Numbered from the stretch's first letter, positions 1 through 8,980 are shown. The stretch: DNA of 61,774 nt from Minisyncoccota bacterium (GCA_018060545.1 JAGOVW010000004.1:1-61774); one strand, 5' to 3'. Program-made: numbers and translations. Notes: a model not told the origin generated them from the letters alone.

Positions 1-2473
1 CTTGAGAGTTGGTGATGGCGAGGTTTGAGAGCGTGGTGATGGAAGCGACTGAGGTGGTGGCGGCCAAGTTGGTGACGAAGTTGTTTGTAGCGCGAGGAGT
101 GGTGAAGTATAGGTTGTCTCCTTCAGTGAGTGCGGTCGTTGTTGTTGCTGCGAGGTTCTGTGCAAAGTTTGATGATGCACGGCTCTGGGTGAAGTACAGA
201 TTGTTCGTGCCTTCGTCCAAGCCGTCGGTGGTGGTGGCAAAATACGCGGCGAGTGAAAGCTTCGCATCTAGCGCGTTTTGCAAATCAGTCTGATTTGAGA
301 GTGTTCCGGTGATAGCTCCCCATGTAGAAGATCCGCTCCCTGCAATCCCTAATGACGATGTCGCAACTAGATCATACCCACCAAAAGAATTCCCTAAGAG
401 CACCTGTCCGTACGATGGCGCTGTTGAGGTTCCCGTACCACCATTGGTAATACCGAGCACACCTGAGATCTCCGTAGCAAGACTCACGAGGCCAGTCGAC
501 ACTTTGCCTGCTGCAGCGCGCAACACACCCGTCAAAGATCCTATGTACAAATTGGAAGTTGTTGCATTCACCACAACCGCATTCGTTGCATATGTGTTTG
601 TCGAGGTTGCATTCGTCGTCGTTGCATTCGTAGCGGAAATTCCTCCACTGAAGGTTGAAGAAGCTGCGACGATAACCCCAACGCTCGTCGTTGGTGCAAG
701 TGCACCGTTTACCAATTCAAATGCCTGCCCAAAAGTAGCACCACTGCCGCTGGTAATGCCCAGCGAAGACGTGGCGACCCACTGCACTCCTGCACCCGTT
801 GTTTGAAGCACATACCCGTTGGCACCACTTGTGCCCGATCCATCATACAGACGCCCGCCGACTGCAATATTCGTAGCAGAAAGATTCGGAAGTGTAGATG
901 TTGCAGAAGAAGTCGCGGTGATATTGCGAGCAACCACTTCACCCACCACCGACAACGCTGCATACGGCGACGAAGTCCCGATACCAAAACGCCCTGTTGC
1001 ATCATCGAAGTACACGGTCGCACCACCGAGCACTCCACCATTGTTGTACTGAAGCTGAGCATCAGACCCACCAGGCAAACCAGCTCCACCACTAATCCCC
1101 AACGATGATGTGGCCAGCAACTGATATCCTCCAGCACCATCGCCAACCAACACCGCGCCATAAGAAGGTGCCGTGCTCGTTCCTGTTCCGCCGCTCGCAA
1201 CTGCCACAACTCCCGAGAGGTCGCTGACGGAAATAGAAACGCCAGACAGAGAACCGCCAGAAATACTCGCATTGCTTATTGTTCCTCCAGAAATGGAGAC
1301 GTTCGAAAGCGAATCAATCCGCTGCGAGAGTCCAAATGTACTTGGGTAAGTTTGTGCAACCGTACCTCCGTAAGAAGAGAACACAGGCGGGACCATTGCG
1401 GTAACACTCTTTATCTGGGAGGTAAACTTGTTATCAAGTTGATTCAAGAGGAGCTGCATGTCAGCAAGGGACAACGCATCCCCGGCAACAACACGCTCCA
1501 CTATGCGTTCACGTATTGGCTGCTCCACGACTGTTTGCTGCACGTATTTTGTTGTGGCAGCAACGGACTTTTGTACTTCAGTCGGTTGTGGCGTAAATGG
1601 CACCACAGTCACGCGCACCATACCATCTTGAGCATTCCGCTGTGGGAGAACTAAAGCAAAAGAAGGAAGACTTGAAAACATTGCTCGCGATACAAATCCG
1701 TCAACAAAGGCACGCGTACGTACAGCCAGGATATCCAGGGCCCCACCAGAAGCAGCCGCTGCAATCTGAGCGACAGATTCTCCCCCCTCATTCATCTGCT
1801 GAAGTCCGTCTACTAGAGCCACTGTACGCTCAGGCACTGAAGCGACAGTTTCGACAGCCTGCTTCGATGAAGCTATGAGCGATCGCGCATAGTCAGCGTC
1901 TACCACTGCATATGTCCCAAACGTCAACATAAACGCAAGAACCAGTGCAAGCACCTTGTGCGCAAAATCGAAAATCGGCGAAAGAAGTGGAGCATGAGCG
2001 ACACCGTGCACAGCGGCCTGACGCACCGCATCAGTGGAAAGCGGCATCGTGACCGCAAGAGTCTTTGCCACGTGCGCTTGCATCGTAGAGACCTTATGAG
2101 AAACACGGGGTGCCTCTTCTTCAGGCAATAAAAAAACTTCGGGTTCCGTAATGACTATTGCCGCGACAGGCTCAACTACCGCTCTCGCAACTGGTGCAGC
2201 TACAGGTGCAACGATCGCAGGAGCAACGGCACCATAGGCACTCTTACGCTCCCTCGCCAAAGCACTATATCTTTCTTCATTGCGACGCCGCTGATCATGA
2301 ACGAACGTATCAAGCGACTTAACATCTACGAACCACTGGCTACCAACACGGCGCGCCACAATTTTTTGCTCACGACAGAGTCGCCCAATGTAGTCACGTG
2401 TAAAGTCATGAAGTGCTGCCGCATCTCCAGCCGAAATGTATTCCCGTCCATCAAAATAAAGATTATTACTCAT
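1..2473 (-). CDS. Large membrane-anchored protein, truncated at window edge: N-terminal HTH_17/excisionase-like domain, one TM helix, long Thr/Ser/Gly-rich fibre-like repeat region
   Basis: Translated by hand; absent from the ORF track because it runs off the edge. Open frame from ATG 2473 (MSNNLYFDGREYISAGDAAALHDFTRDYIGRLCREQKIVARRVGSQWFVD) to position 1, >=824 aa. TM-like KVLALVLAFMLTFGTYAVV at ~1890-1955. Repeats: GGTGTSTAPSYG.VL.G...GGY.L.ATSSLGI x2 and EG(TN/D)NLYFT..RA..NF..NLAATT x2. Confidence 0.85.
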   Translation of the reverse strand, partial: MSNNLYFDGREYISAGDAAALHDFTRDYIGRLCREQKIVARRVGSQWFVDVKSLDTFVHDQRRRNEERYSALARERKSAYGAVAPAIVAPVAAPVARAVVEPVAAIVITEPEVFLLPEEEAPRVSHKVSTMQAHVAKTLAVTMPLSTDAVRQAAVHGVAHAPLLSPIFDFAHKVLALVLAFMLTFGTYAVVDADYARSLIASSKQAVETVASVPERTVALVDGLQQMNEGGESVAQIAAAASGGALDILAVRTRAFVDGFVSRAMFSSLPSFALVLPQRNAQDGMVRVTVVPFTPQPTEVQKSVAATTKYVQQTVVEQPIRERIVERVVAGDALSLADMQLLLNQLDNKFTSQIKSVTAMVPPVFSSYGGTVAQTYPSTFGLSQRIDSLSNVSISGGTISNASISGGSLSGVSISVSDLSGVVAVASGGTGTSTAPSYGAVLVGDGAGGYQLLATSSLGISGGAGLPGGSDAQLQYNNGGVLGGATVYFDDATGRFGIGTSSPYAALSVVGEVVARNITATSSATSTLPNLSATNIAVGGRLYDGSGTSGANGYVLQTTGAGVQWVATSSLGITSGSGATFGQAFELVNGALAPTTSVGVIVAASSTFSGGISATNATTTNATSTNTYATNAVVVNATTSNLYIGSLTGVLRAAAGKVSTGLVSLATEISGVLGITNGGTGTSTAPSYGQVLLGNSFGGYDLVATSSLGIAGSGSSTWGAITGTLSNQTDLQNALDAKLSLAAYFATTTDGLDEGTNNLYFTQSRASSNFAQNLAATTTTALTEGDNLYFTTPRATNNFVTNLAATTSVASITTLSNLAITNSQ

Positions 2474-2499
2474 AATGTCGGGTGTGCGAAATTACTAGA

Positions 2500-2505
2500 A
2501 TTATA
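2500..2505 (-). promoter_or_regulatory. Putative -10 box (TATAAT) for the large HTH-TM gene
   Basis: Perfect TATAAT ~27 nt upstream of ATG 2473 in an AT-rich intergenic region; no clear -35. Confidence 0.4.
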
Positions 2506-2956
2506 TGGTGTTTTCGGTAAACACATCGCTTTCACGATGATTCACGTGTGGACAAGATTCCACCAAAAAATTATTTTAAAAAAGTTTATTTTCACACAAT
2601 ATTTTTCTCTCTCGAATATCAAAAAGAACCGGCTCCGAGAAGTACTCGCAACCTCACTTGCATATCATTAAGCTACTTTCAACCATTCAATTGAGGCCAT
2701 CCCGATAAAAAGTGGATATGAATATAAAAAATCTGTTTAATGCCGTTCATGTACTTCCGTATAAAAATGCTCCATGGGAGCTCTACTGCTCACAGAGTCA
2801 GGCCTACGCTTTAAAATTGCTGCGTTTTGCACCTCAACGGCACACCAGGTGACTACTGGGGTGGGATTTCAGATAAAACGTAATGAGACCTTAGTTGCTT
2901 GATGCGTCTAAAGACGACAGAAAGGAGGTGTCAGGATACCCGATTTGTCTATATTT

Positions 2957-3820
2957 TTAGCGACTTCTTGAGTACTCCGCGTGACCAGCAAGTACATCTG
3001 AAAGTGATACTACAGAGGCGGCGGCAGCGGCTACAAATCGCTCATTGCTCGTGGCTCCGTATGCTAGAACAAGTACAAAAACTGCTGAAACCGTCACCAG
3101 AGCCAGTGCAAGCGTACGACGTGGTGCAGGGACGGACATCTGTGGTGCCACCTGAAGGCTCATGGAAGGTCTACGTGTGACATCAAAACCATGCTTTGGG
3201 GGCATAACTACTATGCTTCGCGGCAATTCAGAAGGTTCATGCAGTGGCGGATGGACGATTTCACTTCTTTTCGCGCTAATATCAGGAAAAAGTGCTCGAT
3301 TGTCTGGCGTATATGAAAGCAAGGGTGCCGGTTGCTTTTTCTTTTCCTGATCTGGACGGACTATCGAGACACCGGACGCAGCGGCCTGCACAGCTGCAAG
3401 AAGAGCATCATTGTGCTCCTTGTGTTTTACAAGTTCAACCTGACCGACGTACCACCTGCTCCCAACCTGTTTTGCAGGAATTTTGCCTTCCCGTGCTAAC
3501 TGCGTCACATAGTCATGGCTATAATGGCTTATTTCCGCTGCTCGCTTTGCCGAGACGTACTCAAGGCCGTCTAGACCAACGATCGTATCTAGCGATTCTG
3601 AATGCTCGAGTGGTGGTGGAACTGGAACATACAATTCGGCCTGCTCCTTGTGTTTTTGAAGGGAAGGCACATTAACAAACCAGGCCCGCTCCACTCTTTT
3701 AGCAAGTATCTTGCCTCCCCGAGCTAGCTGTCCGATGTAGTCAGCCGAATAGTCTAGTAATTCTGCGGCTTGCTTTGCCGAGACATATTCTTGACCGTCA
3801 ATAAGAATACTGTCCTTCAT
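2957..3820 (-). CDS. Tandem HTH_17-like DNA-binding protein with C-terminal TM helix
   Basis: Two repeats: YVSAKQAAELLDYSADYIGQLARGGKILAKRVERAWFV and YVSAKRAAEISHYSHDYVTQLAREGKIPAKQVGSRWYV. Hydrophobic TLALALVTVSAVFVLVLAYG near the C-terminus. Start moved to MKDSIL (TATACT-6nt-ATG). Confidence 0.8.
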   Translation of the reverse strand: MKDSILIDGQEYVSAKQAAELLDYSADYIGQLARGGKILAKRVERAWFVNVPSLQKHKEQAELYVPVPPPLEHSESLDTIVGLDGLEYVSAKRAAEISHYSHDYVTQLAREGKIPAKQVGSRWYVGQVELVKHKEHNDALLAAVQAAASGVSIVRPDQEKKKQPAPLLSYTPDNRALFPDISAKRSEIVHPPLHEPSELPRSIVVMPPKHGFDVTRRPSMSLQVAPQMSVPAPRRTLALALVTVSAVFVLVLAYGATSNERFVAAAAASVVSLSDVLAGHAEYSRSR

Positions 3821-3877
3821 ATACCCAGTATACATCGCGACATGCAGCGTCGCTTTCTAGGTGTGGAGAAAACGTAA

Positions 3878-5308
3878 CTACACCTTAGCCACCTCCTCCA
3901 GGAGCAGGTTAAGCATTACCGTTGGGTTAGCCGAACCCTTTGTTTCCTTCATTGCCTTTCCGACTAGGAACTGGAGTATCTTTTCCTTGCCTTGTTTATA
4001 CTCAGCTACGATGTCCGGATGTTCAGTGATGAGACGCGCAGCAAGTGGGCGCAGCTCATCCTCACCGCCCTTCTGAAGCAAACCTTGCTCGGTTGCGATT
4101 GTTTCTGGATCACGACTGTCGGTCATCATGTAGCGAAGAGTATCCTTCGCACCTCGCGATGAGAGCTTTCCGCCAATAACCATCTCAATTAGTTGTGCGA
4201 AGTTGGAGGGGCTAAAAGGGATTTTTGACCGCATTTCCGTGTCTTGCCCGTGGATATCTCGGATCAAGCTCACCAAGTCACTCGTGAGATAGTTCGTGGC
4301 GAGCCGAGCAAAATCAGGAGATCCCACGCCTTCTGAGAGAACGGCATCAAAGAATGTTGCGAGCTCCGGTGCGCGAGTGAGGAAGTCTGCGTCTGCAGGT
4401 GCAATACCTAGGCCTTGATACCGCACACGGCGGGCGTCAGGCAACTCCCCAAGGTTAAGGGCTCCCACAGCGAGATCGGACACCTCGCTACAGAGAACCT
4501 TTGGCAGATCGGGGTCGGGAAAGTAGCGATAATCCGCCGATCCTTCCTTTACACGCTGCGCGAAGGTTATCTGTCGCCCCTCATCCCACCCTCGTGTCTC
4601 CTGCTGAACAACCTTGCCAGAAGCTAAAAGCTCCTTGTGGCGGGCAACTTCATACTGAACGGCGCGCTCCATAGAACGAAATGAGTTGAGGTTTTTTACT
4701 TCCACTTTGGTACCTAACTGACCTTCTGGTGCGACAGAGATATTGGCTTCCACTCGCATCTGCCCTTTTTCCATATCAGCGTCAGAAACCTTTAAGTATC
4801 GCAAGAGTAGCTGTAGCTCTCGAGCAAACCTACCCGCTTCTTCCGCAGAGTGAATCACCGGCTCTGTTACTAACTCCATCAAAGGTACCCCGGCTCGGTT
4901 GTAATCAACGAGAGTTGCACCTGTCTTCGTATCGTGGATAGAACGCGCGGTGTCCTCTTCAAGGTGAATGCGCGTAATTGCTATATTACACAGCTGCCCT
5001 CCCGTAACCAGCGGGAATGCAAATTGGCTTAACTGGTAGCCCTTAGGGAGATCTGGGTAGAAGTAGTTCTTACGATCAAACTCGGTGTAATCCGCCAGAG
5101 TAGCTCCAATAGCTTTACCAACCTTAAGGACGTGCTGGACAGCCCTAGCGTTGATTGTTGGCAGTGTTCCAGGGTGTGCTAAGCAGACAGGGCAAATATG
5201 AACATTGGGCGAATCAGCCTCTGGGGAGTTTTTTGAGGAACAGAACATTTTTGTTGCCGTTTTCAACTCAACGTGAATCTCGAGCCCAATGGTTGTCAGA
5301 AGTTCCAT
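3878..5308 (-). CDS. gatB: Asp-tRNA(Asn)/Glu-tRNA(Gln) amidotransferase subunit B
   Basis: IGLEIHVEL, KMFC, CPVCLAHPGTLP, FDRKNYFYPDLPKGYQ, RIHLEED, DYNRAGVPLMELVTEP, YRYFPDPDLP. Confidence 0.97.
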   Translation of the reverse strand: MELLTTIGLEIHVELKTATKMFCSSKNSPEADSPNVHICPVCLAHPGTLPTINARAVQHVLKVGKAIGATLADYTEFDRKNYFYPDLPKGYQLSQFAFPLVTGGQLCNIAITRIHLEEDTARSIHDTKTGATLVDYNRAGVPLMELVTEPVIHSAEEAGRFARELQLLLRYLKVSDADMEKGQMRVEANISVAPEGQLGTKVEVKNLNSFRSMERAVQYEVARHKELLASGKVVQQETRGWDEGRQITFAQRVKEGSADYRYFPDPDLPKVLCSEVSDLAVGALNLGELPDARRVRYQGLGIAPADADFLTRAPELATFFDAVLSEGVGSPDFARLATNYLTSDLVSLIRDIHGQDTEMRSKIPFSPSNFAQLIEMVIGGKLSSRGAKDTLRYMMTDSRDPETIATEQGLLQKGGEDELRPLAARLITEHPDIVAEYKQGKEKILQFLVGKAMKETKGSANPTVMLNLLLEEVAKV

Positions 5309-5626
5309 GTGGGCATTCTAACTGCAACTAGCCAGGACACAAGGACTCGCCATGTCGCACAAAGGACCGAAAAATAGCACGGAAGCATTTCAGAACTATT
5401 GTCGACAAAATGGCGAACAGACCAAAAAAGGGAGTATCAAAGGCCGCTCTGGCATATCACCGCGATATCATTATATTTCCAGTACTCGTTTGTCCGAGAT
5501 AACGTATATTCGTAGCTCGTGTTGCCGAGATTCCTTGAGTTTCGGACCAGACCTAGAGATAAAAAGCCTCATTGCTGGGAGGAGTTTGGGTCACCTGACC
5601 ACCTTAGTTGTCCACAATGAGGTTTT

Positions 5627-5791
5627 CTACTTACCGGATTTCCCGCTAATTTTGCCAACACCACTCTTCTCGCCACACCATGGGCAGTACCAGAAGGGAC
5701 GCCGGGGTGCGTCACCAATACTCCACCAATGCGAACAGCTGGCACATCGAAAGTGTGCCAGCTGTTCGTCCGAACGGGCGTGCTTCTTCAT
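5627..5791 (-). CDS. Small zinc-ribbon protein (54 aa, CxxC...CPWC)
   Basis: MKKHARSDEQLAHFRCASCSHWWSIGDAPRRPFWYCPWCGEK. ATG overlaps the secA stop (TGATG) and has TATAGT 6 nt upstream. Confidence 0.65.
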   Translation of the reverse strand: MKKHARSDEQLAHFRCASCSHWWSIGDAPRRPFWYCPWCGEKSGVGKISGKSGK

Positions 5792-8310
5792 CAAGATACT
5801 ATACGCCACTCCCCCGACTCCAGGAGCGGCTCGGCCTTCTTGTACTTCATTTCTTGAGTCTCTGTACCATTGGTGATGGTTACTTTGTCATTTCTTCCAT
5901 ACTCGGTTTTAGCAACCACGCCCTGCGTCCGGGTGATTTGTGCAACCCCCTGACTCAGCGCTTTGAAATCAATCACTGGCTTTGGCGCCATGCCGCTAGA
6001 GGTGAGCTGAGGTAACAGACGTGCCACATGCCCCGCGTATGAAAGTTCCATGTCTTGAAACAAACGAAGACCCTCTTTCTTGTACTCTACCAATGGATCG
6101 CGTTGTCCGTATGCGCGCAAATTCACACTCGAACGCAGATGATCCATCATCTCCAAATGGTCTACCCACAGCAGGTCAATGGTTTGCAGCAAGAGTTTGC
6201 GAACATGTCGCTCGAAATCTTCTGGAGCCAACTCTTGCTTTTTAGTAGTAAAAGAAGTCGCAATAGTTGGTTCTATCGTCGCCAGTCGCACCAATTCTTC
6301 ATCGAGGTCCGCAAGCGTACCCGTGAGGAGCATCTTTCGTCTCGTGTACACACTGGCGCGCTGTGCGCTCATGACGTCGTCGTAGGATAGTACGTGTTTG
6401 CGGGAATCAAAGTGAATCTCTTCAATTCGAGTCTGCGCCTTTTCGAGCGTCCGAGTAATCATGCGGTTATGGATAGGCTCTTCTTCAGGAATGCCAAATG
6501 TACCCATGACGCGCTTCACCACATCTGATGCGAATACGCGCATGAGTGAATCTTCGAGAGACACGAAGAATTGAGTTTCGCCTGGGTCTCCTTGTCGCCC
6601 CGCTCGCCCACGGAGCTGGTTGTCGATGCGGCGAGCTTCGTGCCGTTCGGTTCCCAAAACAAACAGGCCACCAACTGATTTAATCTCGTTGTACACTTCC
6701 TCCGTAGAAGGGTTCCCGCCAAGCTTGATGTCGACACCGCGCCCGGCCATGTTTGTCGCAATGGTAACAGCTCCCCTTCTCCCTGCCTGCGCAATAATCT
6801 CTCCTTCTCGCTCATGATTCTTTGCGTTCAAAATTTCGTGAGGAATGCCCTCCTGCTTGAAGTACGCAGAGAGAAGCTCATTGTTCTCTACTGAAACGGT
6901 GCCCACAAGTACTGGCTGCCCTTTTTCATACAACTCCTTCACTCGTTTAGCGATTGCCTTCATTTTCCCTTTCTCGTTCTGGAAGATGAGATCGTCGTGA
7001 TCGATACGCTGCGCAGCGCGGTGGGTTGGAACAACGACGGTATTAAGGCCGTACACTTTATAGAACTCCTCTGAAGAAGTAATAGCGGTTCCGGTCATAC
7101 CAGCGAGGTGCTCGTAGAGGCGGAAGTAGTTTTGGTACGTGATCGAAGCAAAGGTGCGCGACTCTTGCTGAATGGGTACCCCTTCCTTTGCCTCCATAGC
7201 CTGGTGCAAACCTTCAGACCATCGACGCCCTGGTTGCATACGACCGGTAAACTCATCCACGATGACAACCGTTCCGTCCTTCACCACGTAGTCTTTGTCA
7301 CGCTCGAAGAGTGCGTGCGCGCGTACCGCTGTTTCGAGGTGGTGCACATACTTCACTCCAGCATCTGTATAGATGTTGTCGATACCGAGCGCCTTTTCCG
7401 CCTTCTCGATACCGCTCTCGGAGAGAGCGATAGTGCGGTGCTTCTCGTCAACAGTAAAATCTTCATCACGGACGAGCGTTCGCGCGATCCCAGTAAAACG
7501 ATCGTAGAGCCGCTCCGCGTCTCCTGATGGGGCGGAAATAATAAGCGGCGTGCGTGCCTCGTCAATTAAGATGGAGTCAATCTCGTCCACGATCGCAAAG
7601 TACGGCACTCTCTGGCGAAGGCGACTCGCCTCCTGCTCGATGTTGTCACGTAGGTAGTCGAAGCCAAACTCCTGGTTTGTTCCGTAGGTAATGTCTGCAG
7701 CGTAAGCATCCTTACGTGACACAGGCTTCAGAAATTCATGGGCAACCTTGAATGATCCCATGTCGTCGCGCTCCTTATCCACCTCATCTGCCTCAGCTGG
7801 AGCCACGTGCTCCGGATCATAGAGGAATGACTGCTCATGGTTGATAACGCCTACGGAGAGACCTAGTGCGGCGTAAATTTGTCCCATCCATACCGCGTCG
7901 CGTCGCGAAAGGTAGTCGTTCACCGTAACCACATGAACCCCCTTGCCACTAAGGGCATGCACGTACGCAGGCAGGGTCGCAACCAATGTTTTACCTTCCC
8001 CCGTTCGCATTTCAGCAATGTCGCCAAAGTGAAGAATGGCCCCTCCAAGCAGCTGGACGTCGTAGTGGCGCTGCCCGAGAGTGCGTCGGGAAGCCTCTCG
8101 AACCAACGCAAAACCTTCAGGAACAATATCATCCATAGAAGCCCCTGCCGCAAGCCGAGCCTTGAATTCGAGGGTTTTTGCTTTGAGAGCATCGTCTGAA
8201 AGCGTCATCAGTGAGGACTCAAATGCATTGGCAAGTGGTACTATTTTTTCAGCACGCGCAAAAGCGGCCTGGTTTTCGTCACCAAGAATACCCCGTAAAA
8301 AACGTAGCAT
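5791..8310 (-). CDS. secA: Preprotein translocase ATPase SecA
   Basis: MRTGEGKT, VTVNDYL, DEIDSILIDEARTPLIIS, TNMAGRGVDIKLGG, RIDNQLRGRAGRQGDPG, QRDPLVEYK. C-terminal GRND lacks the Cys/His metal motif. Confidence 0.98.
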   Translation of the reverse strand: MLRFLRGILGDENQAAFARAEKIVPLANAFESSLMTLSDDALKAKTLEFKARLAAGASMDDIVPEGFALVREASRRTLGQRHYDVQLLGGAILHFGDIAEMRTGEGKTLVATLPAYVHALSGKGVHVVTVNDYLSRRDAVWMGQIYAALGLSVGVINHEQSFLYDPEHVAPAEADEVDKERDDMGSFKVAHEFLKPVSRKDAYAADITYGTNQEFGFDYLRDNIEQEASRLRQRVPYFAIVDEIDSILIDEARTPLIISAPSGDAERLYDRFTGIARTLVRDEDFTVDEKHRTIALSESGIEKAEKALGIDNIYTDAGVKYVHHLETAVRAHALFERDKDYVVKDGTVVIVDEFTGRMQPGRRWSEGLHQAMEAKEGVPIQQESRTFASITYQNYFRLYEHLAGMTGTAITSSEEFYKVYGLNTVVVPTHRAAQRIDHDDLIFQNEKGKMKAIAKRVKELYEKGQPVLVGTVSVENNELLSAYFKQEGIPHEILNAKNHEREGEIIAQAGRRGAVTIATNMAGRGVDIKLGGNPSTEEVYNEIKSVGGLFVLGTERHEARRIDNQLRGRAGRQGDPGETQFFVSLEDSLMRVFASDVVKRVMGTFGIPEEEPIHNRMITRTLEKAQTRIEEIHFDSRKHVLSYDDVMSAQRASVYTRRKMLLTGTLADLDEELVRLATIEPTIATSFTTKKQELAPEDFERHVRKLLLQTIDLLWVDHLEMMDHLRSSVNLRAYGQRDPLVEYKKEGLRLFQDMELSYAGHVARLLPQLTSSGMAPKPVIDFKALSQGVAQITRTQGVVAKTEYGRNDKVTITNGTETQEMKYKKAEPLLESGEWRIVS

Positions 8311-8662: not shown

Positions 8663-8980
8663 AGTAGTTGGATTGCGTATCTAAATTTTATTTCGACCGC
8701 TCCTTGTGGGAGCTGTTACAAACATTATGGATGAATATTTGCTGCGTGATGTATTTTTTTTGTCATGTTGTGGATAAGTTAGATATGCATATATATTCAT
8801 ATATAGTTTCCGCATGCAAAGCATATCTGACATGACAGCTCAAGAGATTATTCCTCATCACAATCCAGGATGATGCCGCACATCGTCGAACACGTGACTA
8901 CGCAATCTCATCCTTATCCGACATATTGGTATCAACATAATCATTGAATGTTCGCTTCTTACTTCATCATTCCAAAAACG

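Follow-up and report, generated by a model that had tools for sequence, protein, structure and literature searches.

The window analysed here is an entire 61,774-nt contig (JAGOVW010000004.1) whose source organism is an ultra-small, Kaiserbacteria-type member of the Paceibacteria (Patescibacteria) from wastewater. Read along the minus strand towards its first nucleotide, the window carries secA (5791-8310), gatB (3878-5308) and then two adjacent genes for membrane proteins with helix-turn-helix (HTH) heads, a companion gene (2957-3820) and a giant, fibre-encoding gene that starts at 2473 and continues past position 1. This companion-giant pair is a lineage-wide module of the chromosome, where its usual neighbours are secA and gatB. 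Its architecture, the predicted placement of the heads inside the cell and the linkage of the two genes are well supported, and DNA binding by the heads is plausible, as judged from their modelled fold. A preliminary description of both genes, which had connected DNA-binding-type heads to a surface fibre, proved right in every detail that could be checked, with both open reading frames (ORFs) at the coordinates it gave. Topology, gene linkage and reading frame were among four points named in advance on which that reading could fail, and none of the three contradicts it. The interpretation attached to it is supported in part, with contact sensing, chromosome tethering and hetero-oligomerisation through the shared HTH as possible roles. 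The features of the two proteins are the following.

2957-3820, minus strand: companion gene, 287 residues, with two predicted cytoplasmic winged helices, a linker, a membrane helix and an outside tail of ~30 residues
3647-3820, minus strand: companion winged helix 1, residues 1-58 (HTH_17; strand-strand-helix-helix-strand-strand-helix in the AlphaFold2 (AF2) model, with a predicted local distance difference test score (pLDDT) of ~97; class C1 consensus)
3374-3586, minus strand: companion winged helix 2 and the conserved helix next to it, residues 79-149 (family consensus KDALLAAVQAESVG)
3047-3121, minus strand: companion membrane helix, residues 234-258, with Arg-Arg just before it (hydropathy peak 2.46; AF2 helix)
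2-2473, minus strand: giant HTH-headed fibre gene, first 824 codons, open at the contig end
2288-2455, minus strand: giant winged helix, residues 7-62 (HTH_17 and a hidden Markov model (HMM) of the three copies; AF2 pLDDT 97-98; Foldseek matches to TraN, Xis, BldC and RacA)
2225-2323, minus strand: long helix right after the giant winged helix, residues 51-83 (AF2 pLDDT 95-98)
1901-1981, minus strand: conserved giant membrane helix, residues 165-191, P..E..HK..AL..A..LTFGTYA (hydropathy, AF2, alignment)
1907-1915, minus strand: Thr-Tyr-Ala, residues 187-189, a candidate type-I signal-peptidase site (-3/-1 residues, Gly at -4)
1394-1468, minus strand: predicted helix outside the cell before the fibre, residues 336-360 (AF2 pLDDT means of 74, 92 and 81 in 10-residue blocks)
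2-1273, minus strand: fibre-like part, residues 401-824 (43% Thr/Ser/Gly; GGTGTSTAPSYG motifs at residues 428 and 678)
47-220, minus strand: 29-residue (87-nt) repeats with the contig end (NLYFT spacing, sequencing depth, skip variant)

The companion matches the Pfam family HTH_17 (PF12728) over two stretches (E 1e-9; 38.9 bits, the cut-off being 27) and the excisionase model TIGR01764 (E 1.3e-5). Apart from a sub-threshold match to HTH_31 (18.4 bits), everything that the Pfam scan returned was of the HTH_17 type, and no OmpR/PhoB-type winged helix (Trans_reg_C) was found by it. Together with a single strong hydrophobic segment, these matches bear out the two HTH_17 repeats and the C-terminal membrane helix that had been proposed for this gene. 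In the second head, the best HTH_17 stretch spans residues 94-140, and the helix that follows, modelled at residues 127-149, bears a near-invariant KDALLAAVQ motif in the family alignment. The AF2 model of the whole protein has a mean pLDDT of 83 and a predicted TM-score (pTM) of 0.42. Family members have an outside tail of ~50 residues with a conserved E-x-x-Y-x-R end. Translation almost certainly begins at ATG 3820, in agreement with the 287-residue product on record, with homologues that align from this Met and with a TATACT box upstream; a 292-residue version (ORF 2957-3835) is not on record. The ATG at 3835 is in frame, but as it overlaps the -10 box TATACT, the longer ORF is probably five codons too long.

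In the giant protein, HMM matches, hydropathy and composition agree on the layout first described, namely a third HTH copy, then a membrane helix, then more than 600 Thr/Ser/Gly-rich residues. Its head alone stays below the HTH_17 threshold (residues 13-61, 18.4 bits, E 0.0027); orthologues of this head score 34.4 and 28.4 bits on the same model, and an HMM derived from the companion matches it at E 4e-38. R76, E79 and Y80 of the long helix are invariant or nearly so in relatives. The membrane helix follows the consensus P-x-x-E-x-x-H-K-x-x-A-L-x-x-A-x-x-L-T-F-G-T-Y-A-x-V-D-P-x-Y-A, and across 51 sequences Gly186 is kept in 47, position 187 is T, A or S in 49 and position 189 is A or S in 47. 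Such conservation fits helix packing in a complex. With its position after a 12-residue hydrophobic core, the G-T-Y-A also suits the -3/-1 rule of type-I signal peptidase, which may cleave there. The surroundings of the helix at residues 336-360 are poorly modelled by AF2.

The three HTH copies share 31-39% pairwise identity, and the HMM built from them matches at these three places (E 1e-31 to 1e-38) and nowhere else in the 61.8-kb window. With family alignments, AF2 models all three heads at a pLDDT of 95-98 as a hairpin, two helices, a wing hairpin and a helix. Our locus statistics, here and below, rest on the best 80 loci of a scan that took one genome per species. Across these loci the heads fall into three orthologous classes with identities of 61%, 63% and 52% within and 34-42% between classes, and heads of the same locus show no extra mutual similarity; the triplication is therefore old, with each copy under its own constraint. 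Foldseek searches against the PDB gave high probabilities and weak E-values, the latter to be expected for domains of ~55 residues, and all close matches were DNA binders. The top match was TraN of pIP501 (4pm3, 4p0z; probability 0.96-0.99), accompanied by Pukovnik Xis (4j2n; TM-score 0.70-0.71), BldC (6amk/6ama; TM-score 0.74-0.78, root-mean-square deviation (rmsd) 1.6-2.1 Å), the RdfS excisionase (8dgl) and GlnR. Normalised to the target, TM-scores were 0.53-0.78 for Xis, BldC and RdfS overall (rmsd 1.6-3.5 Å) and 0.49-0.66 for RacA (5i44). The HTH_17 match, the predicted winged helix and the likeness to Xis, BldC and RacA thus all agree with the excisionase/MerR-like fold that had been suggested. 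In at least 40 of 52 sequences, the giant head retains R26, R31, R34 and K37 as well as a basic wing, R41-R42.

As to topology, the 15-residue flanks of the companion membrane helix contain on average 3.85 Lys/Arg on the N-side and 1.6 on the C-side, and the N-side was richer in 69 loci and poorer in three. This positive-inside bias places the companion heads inside the cell. The giant head is likewise predicted to lie inside, because a folded N-terminus of 165 residues without a signal peptide precedes the helix and domains of extracellular type follow it. The cytoplasmic position that had been assumed for the HTHs is hence predicted from charge bias in the companion and from architecture alone in the giant protein.

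The reading frame that joins the giant HTH to the repeats was upheld by independent assemblies, which revealed neither a stop nor a frameshift between them. A Logan assembly of one run agrees with window positions 221-7056 with one mismatch and no gaps, and contigs of four runs (wastewater or activated sludge, two studies) have no indels between the HTH and the repeats. On the side where the giant gene is open, this Logan contig stops even earlier than the window. Depth over the first 230 nt of the window is ~7-fold above that of the rest of the giant gene, contigs of all four runs include a variant that lacks exactly one 87-nt unit (joint 113 to 201), and NLYFT motifs occur at giant residues 758 and 787, that is, 29 residues apart. 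Taken together, these three observations indicate that the contig terminates inside an array of 29-residue repeats. Tandem Repeats Finder reported no repeats in window positions 1-2500, because the nucleotide sequences of the 29-residue repeats have diverged too far. Recovery of the full giant gene from the contig, as had been suggested, is not achievable, the window being the whole contig and ending in these 87-nt repeats.

The module is widely conserved. Companion homologues number 102 in a clustered protein collection, nearly all of them 280-370 residues long with a precomputed PF12728 match, and the named ones belong to Kaiserbacteria, Paceibacterota or Parcubacteria; the genome scan found companion relatives in 202 genomes. 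Of 76 loci with sufficient sequence beyond the companion, 72 have an HTH-headed gene as the next one downstream on the same strand, which confirms the proposed linkage of the two genes across relatives. The spacer between them has a median length of 415 nt (range 126-924). Most of these downstream genes (57 of 72) run off the locus or contig; complete fibre-type giants in the scanned loci have 929-2,673 residues, and open ones exceed 3,000. The order secA-gatB-companion-giant is found in the window and in loci L002, L004 and L005, and loci fetched by exact protein look-up encode giants of 2,017, 4,051 and more than 2,066 residues. A word-based homologue search with giant residues 1-400 returned no matches, owing to low-complexity words, whereas an exhaustive HMMER search with the giant fragment of the window matched 4,194 proteins at E ≤1e-3, with listed lengths of up to 6,938 residues; many of the best 150 matches align from giant residue 1. 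No viral relatives were found among 2.9 million viral contigs.

Some loci depart from this layout. In a few, the companion stands alone, as at L030:3906-4955, where it is followed by glycolysis and pentose-phosphate genes and no giant. Two metagenome-assembled genomes have two companion loci each (L029 and L044; L040 and L049). Additional HTH-headed genes are present in some loci. At L008:11113-12774, L020:4910-6583 and L071:11422-12933, the companion is followed by a short HTH-headed protein of 504-558 residues with three hydrophobic segments, and several kb beyond it, L008 and L071 have one more HTH-headed gene, which is still open where the locus ends. A third architecture with the same head (P0097, P0100 and P0102) combines a single HTH with a membrane helix and, at the C-terminus, a conserved domain of ~60 residues with the motif IRDSFSDEV..PD.SG..GVI.PVF.K..GDDF.YV.VPV; one of these three proteins is labelled 'trimeric autotransporter adhesin' in NCBI.

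For the ectodomain, the likeness to phage fibres and adhesins noted at the outset is supported by collinear full-length relatives with Peptidase_S74 and tail-fibre PHROG matches; the window fragment of the giant protein itself gave no fibre match against Pfam and PHROG. The nearest relative (L006) is collinear over all 824 residues at 74% identity and runs on to at least 2,000 residues before its contig ends. P0110, the best relative in the protein search (50% identity), matches phrog_863 (tail fibre) at E 4.6e-49 and Pfam Gly_rich_2. P0213, which is collinear with the window giant (residues 1-822 to 1-796), carries Peptidase_S74 (E 9e-16) and then a bacterial Ig-like domain, as do P0152 (E 4e-11) and the L011 giant, which adjoins a companion. 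The same two domains occur in four of six other proteins retrieved with a Kaiserbacteria giant head, namely P0204, P0263, P0246 and P0225. Pfam detected no Peptidase_S74 in L056, L067, L085, L021, L066 and P0105, several of which are complete. Peptidase_S74 is the intramolecular chaperone of trimeric phage fibres, and since full-length relatives carry it, the ectodomain is probably a trimeric fibre as well, in which case three heads would be brought together beneath each fibre. One head-bearing giant of 3,543 residues (P0261) has a precomputed intein match (PF14890).

We also examined the DNA upstream of both genes, each of which has a promoter of its own, the two being similarly organised. 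As no RNA run was found to contain the region, transcription starts were placed from -10 boxes only. The relevant features are listed here.

2474-2956, minus strand: intergenic spacer, 483 nt (39.5% GC against 51.9% for the window; only its two ends conserved with the nearest relative)
2481-2518, minus strand: diverged giant promoter block, CCGAAAACACCA-TATAAT-T-CTAGTAATTTCG, with TATAAT at 2500-2505 (identical or nearly so in L006)
2547-2555, minus strand: TTGTCCACA box, 82 nt before the giant start codon
3827-3832, minus strand: TATACT -10 box, 6 nt before ATG 3820 (same spacing in most of the 41 companion upstream regions listed)
3862-3870, minus strand: TTCTCCACA, the window form of the ATCC[A/C]CA box that precedes the companion

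The AT-rich spacer had been put forward as a DNA target over its whole length. We find no support for this, as only ~90 nt beside the giant gene and ~30 nt after the companion are conserved with the nearest relative. With the spacer mostly unconserved, and with no Rfam match at E up to 1 in window positions 1-6000, a long structured RNA is unlikely. The TATACT box 6 nt before its ATG implies that the companion mRNA is leaderless or nearly so. An ATCC[A/C]CA box is present upstream of the companion in 43 of 80 regions, mostly 58-62 nt before the leaderless start, and in the window and its nearest relative it sits one helical turn closer. TTCTCCACA belongs to the only box-spacer-TATA[AC]T combination of the window, compared with 0.19 in shuffled sequence. 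Upstream of the giant gene, the box was found in 50 of 81 regions, always in forward orientation and with a sharp peak at -90 to -81, so that in both promoters it lies near -58 from the inferred transcription start. The extended TTATCC[A/C]CA box and the -10 palindrome were tested on our own set of loci.

Most giant genes have a promoter block with the canonical form CGGATATCCGAAATAACTAGTAAAATACTAGATAAATCGG. Its consensus is GATATCCGAAATA-CTAGTAAAAT-A-CTAGATAAATCGG, in which a palindrome, CGGATATCCG, occurs along with a pair of CTAG-A/T-rich units at a distance of 11 nt. An nhmmer model of the block gave 59 matches directly before HTH-headed genes and seven more at E <1e-3, all in companion-to-giant spacers. 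Of the 67 matches below this E-value, 66 lay upstream of an HTH-headed gene. In 1.1 Mb of related loci, nothing outside such spacers or the upstream regions of HTH-headed genes matched at this threshold.

From these sequence patterns we tentatively propose, at slightly less than an even chance, that the heads bind their own promoters and that the pair couples fibre expression, or the position of the locus, to fibre bases. Companion and giant would sit together at the base of a surface fibre, and their winged helices would bind the conserved promoter sites, that is, the ATCC[A/C]CA box and the palindrome with tandem CTAG-A/T-rich repeats over the giant -10 box. The number or state of fibre bases would thereby influence either the expression of the fibre gene or the membrane position of its locus. 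Such a pair would resemble a membrane-tethered ToxR-like regulator with another DNA-binding domain, a structural fibre taking the place of the sensor domain.

Several observations weigh against this proposal. The heads are only weakly basic (mean net charge +0.1 for companion head 1, +1.2 for head 2 and +1.6 for the giant head), and no co-variation of head residues with the presence of the promoter block was found. The block of the window itself is diverged and falls below the nhmmer threshold of the family model. Furthermore, TTATCCACA is also the textbook consensus of the DnaA box, which means that the box may be read by DnaA or some other factor. The only exact TTATCCACA in the window lies at 8769-8777 on the minus strand, in the spacer upstream of secA, and a strict box precedes secA by 170-240 nt in L027, L065 and L069. 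Finally, the flanks of the giant membrane helix show no positive-inside bias (1.19 against 1.39 Lys/Arg), and G-T-Y-A, if it is a signal-peptidase site, would on cleavage part the head from the fibre.

The near-neutral charge, together with the very high conservation of head sequences across species with differing promoter blocks, would also be expected if the heads were protein-binding modules that place the fibre base and the promoter motifs were read by other factors. We consider this alternative unlikely, though less so than those that follow. Contacts could be head-to-head between companion and giant, or could run through a cytoskeletal or secretion partner; the small-residue face A176/A180/T184/G186 of the giant helix suggests helix packing, and the box is DnaA-like and also found before secA. 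RodZ, with an HTH in the cytoplasm, a single membrane helix and a domain beyond the membrane, is a model for such an arrangement; its HTH is of the XRE type and binds MreB rather than DNA, and it differs from the module in having neither a fibre nor a tandem-HTH partner. However, every close structural relative of the heads binds DNA, the basic residues in wing and recognition helix are kept, and the promoter block is specific to HTH-headed genes in loci where no other DNA-binding protein is conserved.

RacA, a MerR-like winged-helix protein that links DNA to a membrane-associated structure, appears among the structural matches. The heads could accordingly attach to DNA regardless of its sequence and fasten the nucleoid to the envelope where the fibres have their bases, an anchoring of the RacA type that we think quite improbable. 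It would suit the many HTH-headed membrane proteins per locus and cells that are presumably tiny, judging from their lineage. Yet the net charge of the heads is low for non-specific binding, and conserved motifs at fixed positions in their own promoters favour specific recognition. RacA itself is soluble and reaches the membrane via DivIVA, with no membrane helix or ectodomain of its own.

The conserved G-T-Y-A leads to a further reading, export-coupled processing, in which the hydrophobic segment would act as an internal signal peptide, signal peptidase I would cut after Thr-Tyr-Ala and a membrane-tethered stub of ~190 residues bearing the HTH would report export to the promoters. It is compatible with our proposal that the heads bind their own promoters, and we give it a slim chance. 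The sequence offers an n-region with Lys/Arg, a hydrophobic core of 12 residues, Gly at -4, small residues at -3 and -1 and then a conserved VDPxYA; the flank charges are unlike those of a classical anchor, and the stub would have the same layout as the companion. Set against this, AF2 gives a continuous 27-residue helix, a folded domain of 165 residues before a signal peptide would be unusual, and the freed fibre would need another anchor, but no such anchor was identified.

A more elaborate version, in which the head is a co-translational, cis-acting tether and export counter, seems to us just as doubtful. The winged helix, first off the ribosome, would bind the operator block at its own gene while synthesis continues. 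The membrane helix would then insert, and the giant gene would be held at the SecA site through transcription, translation and export of the fibre with its thousands of residues. Cleavage at G-T-Y-A after export would leave one membrane-tethered head per fibre, and these stubs, together with the two-headed companion, would set the expression of the fibre gene. If true, a surface appendage would be linked directly, by protein, to the gene that encodes it.

A prophage or mobile-element remnant, with an excisionase gene beside a tail-fibre gene, would explain the HTH_17/excisionase, tail-fibre, Peptidase_S74 and PHROG matches, but is effectively ruled out by chromosomal conservation and the lack of relatives in the viral contigs, as well as by a position beside secA-gatB that is fixed across the examined loci, membrane helices in both proteins, purifying conservation of each of the three heads and the absence of an integrase or other phage genes nearby.

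We compared the module with known systems. ToxR, TcpP and CadC are transmembrane transcription regulators surveyed in PMC10269533 (2023), a review with no mention of Patescibacteria, HTH_17 or excisionase. Like the giant protein, they have a DNA-binding-type domain at a cytoplasmic N-terminus, a single membrane helix and a large portion outside the cytoplasm, all predicted in our case. ToxR and TcpP have small bitopic partner genes alongside, ToxS and TcpH, as the giant has its companion. In contrast to these regulators, whose heads are of the OmpR/PhoB type, the module uses HTH_17 heads of the excisionase/MerR type; its outer part is phage-tail-fibre-like, with thousands of residues in relatives, instead of a sensor domain, and its partner itself has two DNA-binding-type domains. 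Xis, BldC and RdfS resemble the heads in fold and in the HTH_17/TIGR01764 match. Proteins of the Xis/BldC type bind to direct repeats in head-to-tail fashion; in the giant promoter, CTAG-A/T repeats are found in tandem at a distance of 11 nt. Those proteins, however, are small and soluble, whereas the heads described here carry an extra N-terminal beta-hairpin, are membrane-tethered and are fused to, or paired with, a surface fibre. TraN of pIP501 has two tandem excisionase-like winged helices in one chain, as does the companion; only single domains superpose, though, with a two-domain rmsd of 21-25 Å to a companion model whose pTM is low. TraN is also soluble and belongs to a conjugation system, and no conjugation genes are present here. 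Phage tail fibres and endosialidase tailspikes are similar in that relatives sharing the giant head carry Peptidase_S74 (E down to 9e-16) and tail-fibre PHROGs. Unlike them, the giant is chromosomal, has its N-terminal helix in the cell's own membrane and carries an Ig-like domain after the chaperone, with no virion genes around it.

Patescibacteria make up a large share of bacterial diversity and are thought to live attached to other cells. To our knowledge, little is known, beyond type IV pili, about how they attach to hosts or regulate genes with very few transcription factors. In the module, a conserved domain of DNA-binding type is joined directly to a protein that is probably the main surface fibre, an arrangement that occurs in hundreds of species and has a conserved promoter architecture dedicated to it. 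Should the heads bind these promoters, the result would be a regulator tethered to the membrane, with a structural fibre as its 'sensor', and minimal cells would have a simple route from surface events to gene expression. The idea is testable with small soluble domains and short DNA, with no need to grow the organism. A full-text literature search and the survey in PMC10269533 turned up no account of a surface fibre with an HTH_17 head or of its partner, and the family is apparently unpublished.

Two further kinds of gene were seen in or next to the module in relatives. A gene for 224-246 residues with the motif FSSQEDYDRFEAYLYLL lies between gatB and the companion, or after the giant, in some of them (L002:9136-9810, L004:8063-8803, L076 near 9050 and L021:16186-16863). 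We rejected it as a part of the module, given that it has neither an HTH nor a membrane helix and is absent from the window; it may resemble the REP-associated or IS200-like transposase family. Past the complete giant, at L056:18077-20924, L066:18450-20557 and L065:18441-20843, there is a protein of ~540-800 residues that has a hydrophobic segment at its N-terminus and carries the motif AEAAY(T/S)I.NSARFNDDDSA; in L056 and L066 a gene for 161-163 residues lies before it.

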